From sequence record MT446390.1: a stretch of 64,000 bases of DNA. One strand, written 5' to 3'. Made by a program: the position numbers and the translations under genes. This stretch comes from Escherichia phage TH12. Below are positions 9,411 through 14,165 of the stretch, one piece after another (position 1 is the stretch's first letter; each line of letters begins with the position of its first letter). The notes beneath the pieces were generated by a model. It saw only the letters and a program-made list of their open reading frames with translations. It was not told the origin of the DNA and did not search any database.

Positions 9411-10082
9411 TTATTTAGCCCGCCCTAATATCCTTGCTGCTTGGTTGCATATTGCAGCCAAGCGTTCTTCATTTAGCACATCCGATCCCTTATACCAATA
9501 CATAGAAACAGTTCCCGCATATATGTTATCCAAATTGAAGTAAGGACAACTATACATATACGCCAGTTCCGGAGTTTTTGATTTGGTAGGTAAGAAAGCA
9601 AAATCTGTTTTAGAAGTAAAGTGAAGTCCACTTAAATGGACCGAATATTCTGCTGTCGTTTTATCAACAGGAAATCCTCCCATAGATTTTTCAGTTACTG
9701 TGCTAGGTAACTTACCTTCATACGCAATAAGGTCGACGAAATAATTTAGATTTTTAGGTCTGAAAGAATACACCGAACTAAAATCCGCCCTTGATGTGAC
9801 GTGGACTATTTGTAGTTGTTCTAAAGCCGCAGATTCAAATCGTGTATTTCTTTCTTTTTGAATTACTTCTGTGTAAGTATCATATTTCGACCTCACGTAA
9901 TAATCCATAAAAATATTCCCTTTGTACCATATTAGTGCCATTAGGAACAAAAGAACTACAACAGCAACTCTTGAAATAAGAATATTTCCAGAGGCGTTAT
10001 CTTTGAAAATGCGGTCTAGCAACCCAAATAAAATATCACTAGGCGAAAATGATACTTTTGGTGCTGCCATATTACCTCCCAT
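9411..10082 (-). CDS. t: holin T
   Basis: 223 aa; single N-terminal TM plus large periplasmic domain; matches recalled T4 T holin. Confidence 0.9.
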   Translation of the reverse strand: MGGNMAAPKVSFSPSDILFGLLDRIFKDNASGNILISRVAVVVLLFLMALIWYKGNIFMDYYVRSKYDTYTEVIQKERNTRFESAALEQLQIVHVTSRADFSSVYSFRPKNLNYFVDLIAYEGKLPSTVTEKSMGGFPVDKTTAEYSVHLSGLHFTSKTDFAFLPTKSKTPELAYMYSCPYFNLDNIYAGTVSMYWYKGSDVLNEERLAAICNQAARILGRAK

Positions 10083-10097: not shown

Positions 10098-10115
10098 ATT
10101 GAGAGGTATTATCGT

Positions 10116-10895
10116 TTAAATCCAGGAGCCGTAGATTGTGCCTGTAGCACCCCATGACGGTGAACTTCCGAATACTGCTCTGCCAGGAGCACCGCCGCCA
10201 GATCTAGATAAGTGATTACCCCATCCATCTCCGCCCCGACCTCCAGCATCCCCGCCATTACCACCGCCGAATTGGGAAGTGTAACCGGCGCCGCCCGGGG
10301 CGTCATAACTAGCATTACCACCAGGCCAATTAACGCCGCCTCCGCCGAGGCCAAATGGTCTACCACCACCGCCACCTGCTGTAGCATTTGGCGCCCAGCT
10401 ATTCTGTAATGACACTGCACCACCTCCGCCACCGCCTGATGCAATAACGCCATAGTTCCAAATACGAAGTCTTCCGCCGATATCATTTTGGATTACATCG
10501 CCACCATTAGTGCCTGGGTTTCCGTTTACAGTACCGTTACCACCTCGTCCCCACATATGAACTCCGCCATGAATATTCAAAGTAACATATTCATTTGGCG
10601 TATCGCCATACATAAAGAATAATGGAACATCTTTACTATATGATACCAAATTTCCGGTGATATTAAACACTATAGGTGCACTACCTGCCTCAAAACATCT
10701 ATCTCGGAACCATTGACCATTGAAGTTATGGTCTGCTCCAAGTGTGTGAATTATTTCTCTTGAACGGCCCGCGAATTGGGACATCCATGAAGGGTTTCCT
10801 AAACGAAGTTCCCTTGAAGCAGCCGTCATCCATCTTTGCCCCGTTTCAGCAACGGCTGAAGTCCCAATCCAACCAGGGATTCCTACTACTGCCAT
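10116..10895 (-). CDS. 38: long tail fiber adhesin gp38, T2/T6 type with glycine-rich motifs
   Basis: 259 aa; N-terminus [11 protein letters not shown]...RWM...[43 protein letters not shown] and poly-Gly blocks (GGGGGG, GGGGG, GGGG) typical of T2-like gp38 adhesins. Confidence 0.85.
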
Positions 10896-10925
10896 ATAAA
10901 CCTCCAGGGCCCGAAGGCCCTTTTA

Positions 10926-13900
10926 TTATTTTATCAATGATTTAATTAATGCTTTCAATTCGGCAATTTCAGATTTCAATTCCTTGATTTCATCTGTATG
11001 CTCGTTTATTGCAGCTGTATTTAAACCAACAATACCGTTATAGTTCAAACGAAGCAGTCCGGTCTCTTTATCTTCAGAAACAAGTTCAGGTAATACTTCT
11101 TGAACTTCCTGAGCAATTAAACCTGCGGACGGTTTAACTTCGTCTGTAACAGAGTTTTTAAGCAGATAAGTATAACCGCCCAATAGTTTAGATTTCTCTT
11201 GAGCGTTCTTAATAAGCTTAATTTCCGACTTACAACGAATATCAGAACGAATATAAACGTCGTTAACATCAATGTTATCACGAACATACATACCTGCATT
11301 ACAGTGGAAGTTAACATCACCGAATGTCTGAGCTAAACCAGGTCTAAAACTAAACACACCTTGGCCGTTTGCATATGCGTTGAAAATACCATCGTTTTCC
11401 CAAAGCAAACCGGTATCGTTATCTCCAAGTACAATACACGGCCCGCCCCATGCAGGGTCACCACCACCAGCTGATACTCTACTGCTCTTAAGTAAGCTTG
11501 GAGCATAAAAAGTGCCGTTATGATGGAATTCATATACAGCTTGTGGGTCGTAACCGTTTTCCTGATTACCTACACGAATAATACCTTGTGCCCATGTATT
11601 AGTAATGCGTCGCATACCAAAATCTACACCAGATATGTATCCTTCATTAGTAATACCGGATTTTCCTTTAATAATAGGATAATAACTATCATTACCAACA
11701 TTACCAAAATCTACAAATACCGGTGCTTCTTGATTCCATTGATTTCCCCAACCACCTCCCTGGTGTGCGGTCCATTGTGTACCGTTTATATGGAGGCGGT
11801 CTCTATTAAAATTAAATGTTCCTTGGCCTTGAGGAGAAAGTGATATTTCTCCGTTATTTGTTATATATACACCGCCTTGTGTAACATAACTGTAAAAACC
11901 TAGACCATTGTCGGCACCGCCTTTACCAATATACCAATTATTGACCCCGGCCGTATCGGAACGAATAAATGATGAATCACTGGCCAAAGGAGGATTAAGA
12001 ACTATTCCAGCAGCATCTTTATTAATCCAAAGAGTGCCGGTCATCGTATCACCTTCTTTGGCAACACGAGTAGCTATTGCATCGCGAATATTAGTTACGT
12101 CGCCTGCAGAAGTAAACGTTTTCCAAATATCCGAGAAAATATTACCATTACGAGCAATAGCAGCTTCACCACCACCGACCAGAACATTATCAGGGAAATT
12201 AACTGTACCATCCATATTAAATCTTGATGTATGGCCTTGTGAACCATCTTCTTTCAGATGATGAATAACGAATGTACCTGATTCAATTTCGGTACCTAAA
12301 GACCAAACAGATTTACCGTTTAAAAACTTCTGTTTAACAATAGGATAATATTTGCTTACAGCATCATCATCAATTTCCTGGAAAATAGGAGCCGCTTGAG
12401 CATATTGAATGTCATAACCGCCGGCACCCGCTCCATGACCAACAAATTTAATATAACCGTTAGCAGCGAACGTATTGTAACTTGATTGTAAATCTGGAAT
12501 AGTAACTTTACCAGTATCTAAAGCCATACTAAATGGGCGAAGTGGACCAATATCGCCATCTTTGCCTTCGCCATAAGCAGTTGGAATAATATGAAGACTT
12601 CCTTCTGAACGTCTAAAAATGGCTCCATAATCTGCGTTCCAAATACGAAGAGCATTCACTGCTCCAGATGAAATTTCACCTGTTGTGTGAACTCCTCTAT
12701 CTCCAGCAGTAACACCAGATGATTCAAATGAACCATTAACGTTCATTTCTACTTCGCCAGTAGTAAGTCTTTGAATATAGCTCATCCAGCTAGTTGCATC
12801 AGAAATTTCCATAATGTTTTTACGGATACCTCCGCTTGGATCAACAAACGTATTACCCCAAACTTTAATATCCATATTATCAACCGAGCTGTATCCTGTT
12901 GTGTTGCCTCTAAACATTAGTGTAGAAGAATTATTTCTACCATCTATATTAACAGAACCGCCAATAACATCAATATTACCTGGAGTAACTAACAAACCGC
13001 CGTGAGTATTAATGTTTGTAGTACCCTTACCGCGAAAATAATGATGATAGTTACCGCCTTGATAATATCCTAAAAGAGTTTGACCGTCACCGTATGCGTT
13101 ATTATCATGGTAAGTAACAACAGTAGCCAAAGCATAGTTTTCTGTCGGTGGCGTTGTCATAAGAAGCCCATCTGGAGAATAACCCATAACCATTTTTCTA
13201 AGGCTTTGTGTTTCTGCAGGGCCGTAGATGAAAGTTCTTGTTCCATTGTTTACTGTATGGAAATATCCATCCTGGTGCCATTTTAACCCGGTGTCATTAT
13301 CGCCAATAGCAATAGAACCTTTACCTAAGGCTGAATATGTCATAGGACTTGATTCCATACCTACTGCAATTGAATGGCCTGCTTGAAGCCCACCGGAATA
13401 AGAAAATGACAACATGTAATCAGTAGGGGTTGAACCAGAATACCAACTGATGCCGTTATTTTCACAAATTTCATGGAGCATTGCGGCCGCCGGGTCGGTA
13501 CGTACGACACGTAAATTATTTTTATCTGTGTTAGAATTATTATTTGCTAATGAATAGATGTCATAATCACCGGCCTTCTTCCCGTCTGTAATGACTTTGT
13601 CAGTCAAAATCTGAGGAGTTGACATAGATTTCCGTGCCGATACTTCAGGTGAAATAAATTGTCCATTGCCTGAAAATGCATAAATGCTTTCGCTACCAGC
13701 GGCGTAGTCTTGAACCCTGATATTAAGTACTTGTGTAGTTAATCCATCATTAGCCGGGGCATAAATGATTCCACGTTCGCGGCTATTGCCATCGAAAAAA
13801 CGAACATGTGCTGTATCTGAACTTTTTGTAATAAGTTCACCGCCTTCAGTCATAATCTGCCCAGCGGCAATAATATCACGAGTTACTCGAGCAATACCAG

Positions 13901-14165
13901 TTAAATTAAAATTACCTGTCTGAGTGAAGGTGCCATTTAAAGTATAATCGCCGGTTTGGTTATAATTACCTGTATGAATAACATTCCCGTCAATACTACC
14001 GCCTTTAGCAAAACCTAGATCAATAATATTTCCTTGGTCATCTTTAGTAAAAAGTACACGGTCTTTTAAGTTTATAGCCAATTCACCTTCGGCTAATACT
14101 GAAGCGGCAGGACGTGCTCCTGCAGTTTTGCTTCTTTTAAATTGTATTTGTTTTAAAGTAGCCAT
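10926..14165 (-). CDS. 37: long tail fiber distal subunit gp37 (with C-terminal intramolecular chaperone-like domain)
   Basis: 1079 aa beta-rich fiber protein at the gene 37 position; C-terminal ~106 aa resembles the self-cleaving chaperone domain of fibers/endosialidases. Confidence 0.9.
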   Translation of the reverse strand: MATLKQIQFKRSKTAGARPAASVLAEGELAINLKDRVLFTKDDQGNIIDLGFAKGGSIDGNVIHTGNYNQTGDYTLNGTFTQTGNFNLTGIARVTRDIIAAGQIMTEGGELITKSSDTAHVRFFDGNSRERGIIYAPANDGLTTQVLNIRVQDYAAGSESIYAFSGNGQFISPEVSARKSMSTPQILTDKVITDGKKAGDYDIYSLANNNSNTDKNNLRVVRTDPAAAMLHEICENNGISWYSGSTPTDYMLSFSYSGGLQAGHSIAVGMESSPMTYSALGKGSIAIGDNDTGLKWHQDGYFHTVNNGTRTFIYGPAETQSLRKMVMGYSPDGLLMTTPPTENYALATVVTYHDNNAYGDGQTLLGYYQGGNYHHYFRGKGTTNINTHGGLLVTPGNIDVIGGSVNIDGRNNSSTLMFRGNTTGYSSVDNMDIKVWGNTFVDPSGGIRKNIMEISDATSWMSYIQRLTTGEVEMNVNGSFESSGVTAGDRGVHTTGEISSGAVNALRIWNADYGAIFRRSEGSLHIIPTAYGEGKDGDIGPLRPFSMALDTGKVTIPDLQSSYNTFAANGYIKFVGHGAGAGGYDIQYAQAAPIFQEIDDDAVSKYYPIVKQKFLNGKSVWSLGTEIESGTFVIHHLKEDGSQGHTSRFNMDGTVNFPDNVLVGGGEAAIARNGNIFSDIWKTFTSAGDVTNIRDAIATRVAKEGDTMTGTLWINKDAAGIVLNPPLASDSSFIRSDTAGVNNWYIGKGGADNGLGFYSYVTQGGVYITNNGEISLSPQGQGTFNFNRDRLHINGTQWTAHQGGGWGNQWNQEAPVFVDFGNVGNDSYYPIIKGKSGITNEGYISGVDFGMRRITNTWAQGIIRVGNQENGYDPQAVYEFHHNGTFYAPSLLKSSRVSAGGGDPAWGGPCIVLGDNDTGLLWENDGIFNAYANGQGVFSFRPGLAQTFGDVNFHCNAGMYVRDNIDVNDVYIRSDIRCKSEIKLIKNAQEKSKLLGGYTYLLKNSVTDEVKPSAGLIAQEVQEVLPELVSEDKETGLLRLNYNGIVGLNTAAINEHTDEIKELKSEIAELKALIKSLIK

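Follow-up and report, generated by a model that had tools for sequence, protein, structure and literature searches.

The analyzed window, a stretch of 64,000 nt from Escherichia phage TH12 (record MT446390.1), harbors a Tequatrovirus long-tail-fiber locus on its minus strand and the early genes asiA and motA on its plus strand. Gene 37, which encodes the precursor of the long tail fiber distal subunit, occupies positions 10926..14165 of the minus strand and specifies a protein of 1079 aa followed by a stop codon, with a predicted mass of 116.4 kDa. It is succeeded on the same strand by gene 38 (10116..10895), which starts 30 nt past the gp37 stop codon and encodes a glycine-rich adhesin of the T2/S16 type with 259 aa, and by the holin gene t (9411-10082). 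The gene order 36-37-38-t in the window agrees with that in phages AugustSocin and T2. At the DNA level, the gp37-gp38 region is matched by 735 phage records, and it is 93.7% identical to the corresponding region of Shigella phage Shf125875, where it is annotated as long tail fiber distal subunit. The upstream part of gp37 makes up the shaft of the long tail fiber: it contains a Gp34_trimer domain, and T4 gp34 is among its matches in the PDB. Our analysis focuses on positions 10926-11246 of the minus strand, which correspond to gp37 residues 974-1079 (106 aa) together with the TAA stop codon (10926-10928). Coding on the opposite strand was rejected as a candidate; the only plus-strand ORF that reaches into the region, and then just at its end, comprises 67 aa (10742-10945), and support for the gp37 frame is strong. 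Two small out-of-frame ORFs are present on the minus strand within gp37.

The minus-strand spacer of 30 nt between the two fiber genes (10896..10925) has features of its own. A hairpin with a C(UUCG)G tetraloop (10906-10921) is located directly before the gp38 Shine-Dalgarno sequence GGAGG (10901-10905) and is kept in ten related loci, in which changes in the stem preserve pairing. Read on the plus strand, the same hairpin precedes a run rich in T and is scored as resembling a terminator.

Residues 974-1079 of gp37 (10929..11246, minus strand) belong to the Peptidase_S74 family and constitute a C-terminal intramolecular chaperone domain. Several lines of evidence identify this domain: (i) The isolated region matches PF13884 (Peptidase_S74, "chaperone of endosialidase") with an E-value of 1.3e-13 and 51.5 bits, compared with a curated cut-off of 22 bits, and the match covers profile positions 1-57 of 58; when the whole of gp37 is used as the query, the match is to residues 974-1029 with an E-value of 9.9e-12. 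(ii) In a phmmer search, the domain finds PDB entry 6f45_A, i.e. gp37 of Salmonella phage S16, with an E-value of 9.9e-25, and the alignment extends to the final residue. (iii) A profile built from database homologs (alignment A1, 21 sequences) finds the autocleavage (ICA) domain of MyRF (7dc3, E=3e-15), the phage tail fiber 8jov (E=1.5e-12) and the neck-appendage chaperone of phage GA-1 (3gud), and the start of the latter chain, SDERHK, aligns with SDIRCK in gp37. These E-values rule out a chance match. PF13884 is also present in all 24 members of the homolog set, which consists of short proteins. Thus, the profile search bears out the proposal made in the first-pass annotation that gp37 carries a C-terminal domain resembling self-cleaving chaperones.

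The position of the domain at the extreme C-terminus of a fiber protein (residues 974-1079 of 1079) is shared by many phages. Using tblastn, we detected the domain in 1593 phage records, where it lies at the end of genes for fibers or spikes, among them the L-shaped fibers of T5-like phages. Copies that are at least 90% identical to the gp37 domain are found in 43 of these 1593 records (1, 39 and 3 by identity band).

Structure prediction agrees with the family assignment. An AlphaFold2 model computed for a 134-aa query with alignment A1 has a mean pLDDT of 85 and consists of a small β core, with strands at query positions 53-95, and a terminal helix of 37 residues at positions 97-133. In a Foldseek search against the PDB, the sole significant matches of this model are the ICA domain of MyRF (7dc3; E=3e-6, TM 0.67) and the chaperone domain of an endosialidase (3gw6; probability 1.00, TM 0.58 on the query, identity about 12%). 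The model is of a monomer, and the active site of the trimer is beyond its reach. The long helix, with a pLDDT above 90, corresponds to gp37 residues 1042-1078 (10932..11042, minus strand) and, in the best heptad register, has L, I, V or M at 8 of its 13 a/d positions. The homologous helices of MyRF form a trimerizing coiled coil (PMC8326128). Taken together, the prediction matches the terminal coiled coil expected from the first-pass annotation and suggests that the terminal helix of gp37 probably forms a trimeric coiled coil.

The residues that carry out self-cleavage in characterized members of this family have counterparts in gp37. In MyRF, the bond between P586 and S587 is cut, and the substitutions S587A and K592A each abolish cleavage; moreover, Y615 and Y617 line the site, and a Y615A/Y617A double mutant loses correct cleavage (PMC8326128). 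The authors of that study equated S587 and K592 with S911 and K916 of the endosialidase endoNF (PMC8326128). In our alignments, gp37 residues Ser974, Lys979, Tyr998 and Tyr1000 align with MyRF position 587 (Ala in the S587A chain of 7dc3), K592, Y615 and Y617, respectively. Ser974 (11244..11246, minus strand), the predicted nucleophile, and its neighbor Asp975 are each at least 90% conserved in A1. Lys979 (11229..11231, minus strand), the predicted general base of a Ser-Lys dyad, lies in the invariant column K34 of A1 and fits the Lys partner that had been proposed for the serine. Tyr998-Thr999-Tyr1000 (11166..11174, minus strand) align with MyRF Y615-R616-Y617, and the two tyrosines would be the aromatics lining the predicted cleavage site. 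The GxIAQEV motif noted earlier is present as GLIAQEV at residues 1015-1021 (11103..11123, minus strand); G1015, A1018 and Q1019 (columns G70, A73 and Q74) are invariant in A1, and the valine in column V76 is nearly so. An IAQEV motif is common to MyRF (GVIAQEV) and S16 (GLIAQEV).

The spacing of serine and lysine was examined more broadly in 82 loci, comprising 80 IMG/VR contigs and two phage records. By a regular expression anchored on the alignment position, SDxxxK is present at the aligned position in 81 of them; in the 82nd (L025), the displayed sequence breaks off at SDRKL, short of the position of the lysine. Across these loci, the predicted released part has 90-119 residues with a median of 101, and it has 106 residues in gp37 of TH12.

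We infer that gp37 of TH12 self-cleaves between Arg973 and Ser974 (11244..11249, minus strand). S16 gp37 loses its last 113 residues by autocleavage at DLNVS^SDRRIKK, which bares the surface on which gp38 docks (PMC7917993), and this site aligns with DVYIR^SDIRCKS in gp37. The same bond aligns with P586^S587 of MyRF and places Ser974 opposite the first residue of 3gud. By homology, Ser974 would thus be the P1' residue and the nucleophile itself, with the lysine five residues further on. Of the earlier proposal that a conserved serine lies shortly past the cleavage point, the conserved serine is retained and the distance is not, as the serine is by homology the first residue after the bond. Since the P1 residue is evidently not conserved (Arg in gp37, Ser in S16 and Pro in MyRF), the exact bond is assigned from the alignment alone. 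The predicted mature fiber part would comprise residues 1-973 (11247..14165, minus strand), with a predicted mass of 104.7 kDa and the C-terminus ...NIDVNDVYIR, and the released fragment would have a predicted mass of 11.7 kDa. This agrees with the previously suggested end of the mature fiber tip near ...DVYIR.

Three groups of phages provide the closest precedents for this junction. S16 gp37 (PDB 6f45; Dunne et al. 2018) also has the domain as its C-terminal part, and this domain aligns with that of TH12 from end to end, sharing SD.R.K, GGYTYL, GLIAQEV, LNYNGI and the terminal helix; the next gene likewise codes for a glycine-rich gp38 with three N-terminal tryptophans. The two differ at the junction, DLNVS/SDRRIK in S16 and DVYIR/SDIRCK in TH12, and the domain of S16 is interrupted by two short insertions. 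Phage T2 belongs to the same genus as TH12 and has the same gene order and a near-identical junction, NVYIR/SDIRLK, which is followed by 99 aa. However, beyond its first ~20 residues the 99-aa domain of T2 is divergent, and the whole of T2 gp37 has 1341 aa compared with 1079 aa in TH12. Gp37 of T2 and T6 is reported to be C-terminally processed and then capped at the processed end by the gp38 adhesin (PMC3157838, citing Drexler et al. 1986). In the fPS phages of Yersinia, cleavage after an identical DVYIR, likewise followed by SD.R.K, was predicted in 2021 together with docking of gp38 on that end (PMC7917993). The residues following the bond differ between these phages (SDGRLKI) and TH12 (SDIRCKS), and cleavage is a prediction in the fPS phages as well.

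More distant relatives place the same domain in other contexts. EndoNF of phage K1F (PDB 3gw6), the founding member of Peptidase_S74, shares with gp37 the Pfam family, the fold and an equivalently placed Ser-Lys dyad (S911/K916), whereas its chaperone is part of a tailspike enzyme rather than of a fiber. Catalysis in endoNF also involves an Arg of the upstream β-helix, R897 (PMC8326128). The ICA domain of MyRF is the best structural match to the gp37 model, with aligned catalytic residues and a trimeric coiled coil; unlike gp37, MyRF is a eukaryotic membrane-bound transcription factor, and its cleavage serves to free a DNA-binding domain and not to mature a fiber.

Two alternatives to self-cleavage accept that the domain belongs to the S74 type. 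In the first, a genuine chaperone domain stays uncleaved on the fiber, where it would serve as a structural knob with gp38 bound to it or next to it. Sequence analysis gives no direct measure of processing, which leaves some room for this idea; however, the full catalytic set S974, K979, Y998 and Y1000 is intact, the junction is nearly identical to that in T2 gp37, a protein reported as processed, and S16 gp37 provides a precedent of cleavage (PMC7917993). Accordingly, we regard a retained knob as very improbable. Alternatively, a separate protease of host or phage origin could trim the C-terminus of gp37, with the S74-like domain acting as a folding aid only. In favor of this idea, the original T2 work by Drexler from 1986 is reported to have established processing but not the protease. 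Against it, gp37 retains, at the aligned positions, the Ser-Lys dyad that MyRF requires for self-cleavage, and the S16 chaperone is described as autocleaved (PMC7917993). Trimming by a separate protease seems to us even less probable than retention of the domain.

Gp38 of TH12 contains the domains GP38 (PF05268, E=2.5e-83) and Gp38_N (PF21721, E=8e-21), and its best matches in the PDB are gp38 of PP01 (9v85, E=1e-73) and gp38 of S16 (6f45_D, E=2e-48), both of which are receptor-binding tips. In S16 gp38, three conserved tryptophans of the attachment domain act as prongs that insert into pockets on the end of gp37 (PMC6851490). Residues W9, W22 and W37 of TH12 gp38 align with tryptophans in the N-terminus of S16 gp38 (6f45_D). 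The presence of both domains and the conservation of W9, W22 and W37 are in line with the suggestion in the first-pass annotation that gp38 docks on the processed gp37 end, and we infer that gp38 caps the processed tip of gp37. Considered by itself, the gp37 tip (residues 880-973) has a marginal match to 6f45_A (E=0.0034) over 33 residues (905-937), confined to the motif GDNDTGL.W..DG, and the last tip strand (DVYIR in gp37, DLNVS in S16) is aligned solely within the longer S16 match. Because the tip is only marginally similar to that of S16, the surface and geometry of gp38 docking are an extrapolation from a distant template.

These properties of gp38 also bear on a third alternative, in which the proteins would function as in T4. 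T4 shares with TH12 a homologous fiber shaft and the same gene order; however, in T4 the receptor is bound by the tip of gp37 itself, and gp38 is an unrelated protein that serves as an assembly chaperone and does not occur in virions (PMC6851490, PMC3157838). Applied to TH12, gp38 would be a folding chaperone for gp37 that is missing from the virion and the C-terminal domain of gp37 would be a redundant relic. Several database records name the gp38 homolog "long tail fiber assembly chaperone" or "assembly catalyst", and these labels look like a legacy of T4 naming. Gp38 in TH12 is of the glycine-rich adhesin type, and no T4 gp37 chain is found among the PDB matches of full-length gp37, whereas chains of S16 gp37 and T4 gp34 are; the T4-type arrangement, with a chaperone gp38 and an adhesin at the gp37 tip, is rejected on these two grounds, and the relic idea is the least probable of the three alternatives.

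Combining the family assignment, the aligned catalytic residues and the properties of gp38 with what is described for endoNF, MyRF and S16 gp37, from which the mechanism is drawn, we suggest that residues 974-1079 of gp37 constitute an S74 chaperone that nucleates trimerization and is self-cleaved at Arg973-Ser974, after which gp38 docks on the exposed end. We assign this reading a probability of roughly 0.9. In this model, three copies of the domain, each still attached to its gp37 chain, would associate by means of their C-terminal helices and a β "donut", and this association would nucleate the trimerization and folding of the upstream β-helical fiber tip. After formation of the trimer, the Arg973-Ser974 bond would be attacked by Ser974, for which Lys979 would serve as the activator, within a pocket that Tyr998 and Tyr1000 line. 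Cleavage would free the 11.7-kDa fragment and leave a mature gp37 of 104.7 kDa ending in ...DVYIR. Subsequently, a single gp38 molecule would dock on the newly exposed end of the trimer via its N-terminal three-helix domain containing W9, W22 and W37.

A speculative extension of this model, which we consider unlikely to hold, concerns the interval between cleavage and docking. Possibly, the released trimer of the 106-residue domain fills the hydrophobic pockets on the gp37 end before monomeric gp38 does so with its three helices tipped by tryptophans, and the N-terminal bundle of gp38, by mimicking the chaperone with pseudo-threefold symmetry, takes its place in a hand-over step. If so, the subtype of the chaperone, the tip strand and the subtype of the gp38 N-terminus would be exchanged together as one cassette, and the TH12 subtype, with an unusual Cys978 between the two residues of the dyad, would represent one such cassette.

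A self-cleaving chaperone on gp37 is an arrangement that is already known, having been established or predicted for T2, S16 and the fPS phages, and the identification of the domain in TH12 has consequences for how this fiber is annotated and engineered. For annotation, mature gp37 should be taken as residues 1-973 (~105 kDa). Recombinant fiber tips and chimeras in which gp38 is swapped for retargeting of host range would have to retain the domain, including Ser974 and Lys979, in order to fold, and engineered fibers would need a gp38 whose N-terminus is compatible with the gp37 end.

In the SD.R.K motif of gp37, which lies at 11229-11246 on the minus strand just after the predicted DVYIR|SDIRCK cleavage junction of the C-terminal chaperone domain, Cys978 is placed between the conserved Arg and Lys. 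Among the compared loci, Cys at this position is restricted to the subgroup with the DVYIR junction; in the remaining loci the residue is L, V, A, F, H, Y or M. The domain occurs in 1593 phage records, of which only 43 carry a copy at least 90% identical to the TH12 chaperone subtype; this subtype is therefore the minority one among coliphages.

Upstream of the chaperone domain, gp37 contains the motif GDNDTGL.W..DG twice, as IAIGDNDTGLKWHQDGYF near residue 290 (residues ~285-305; ~13290-13350, minus strand) and as IVLGDNDTGLLWENDGIF near residue 910 (residues ~905-925; ~11380-11450, minus strand). The gp37 tip of Salmonella phage S16 also carries this motif, which seems to be a building block that recurs in fibres. 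Moreover, the Gp34_trimer domain, which belongs to the proximal fibre subunit, has a match at gp37 residues 449-546, and this match indicates that the proximal and distal half-fibres have modules in common.

The 30-nt spacer between gp37 and gp38 (10896-10925, minus strand) contains a UUCG tetraloop hairpin, GGGCC-UUCG-GGCCC (10906-10921), and, directly 3' of it, the gp38 Shine-Dalgarno sequence (10901-10905). The hairpin is kept in 10 related loci (T2, AugustSocin, ECO4 and IMG/VR contigs), in which the stem varies, for example GGGGC/GCCCC and GAGGGC/GCCCTC, with pairing retained. Stable hairpins of a similar kind, C(UUCG)G, reportedly occur in T4 intercistronic regions. On the plus strand, where TTTATTATTT comes after the hairpin, the site has a score like that of an intrinsic terminator; given this score, it could in addition stop antisense early transcription from asiA/motA.

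The glycine-rich stretch of gp38 (10116-10895, minus strand) gives rise to long spurious open reading frames in other frames, e.g. one of 125 aa at 10109-10486 (minus strand). The attachment domain at the N terminus of gp38 is of the type that pairs with a gp37 ending in DVYIR. In five T4-like IMG/VR contigs (L007-L011), with the gp37 junction [ND]VEIR|SDRR.K, the gene after the chaperone domain matches nothing of gp38 beyond the first ~45 gp38 residues; these correspond to the attachment domain, and the rest of the protein is unrelated. This arrangement recalls the RB43-type modular adhesins (PMC3157838). From residue 39 onward, TH12 gp38 is nearest to the OmpC-binding gp38 of phage PP01 (PDB 9v85, E=1.4e-73), and this proximity suggests an OmpC-type receptor specificity for TH12.
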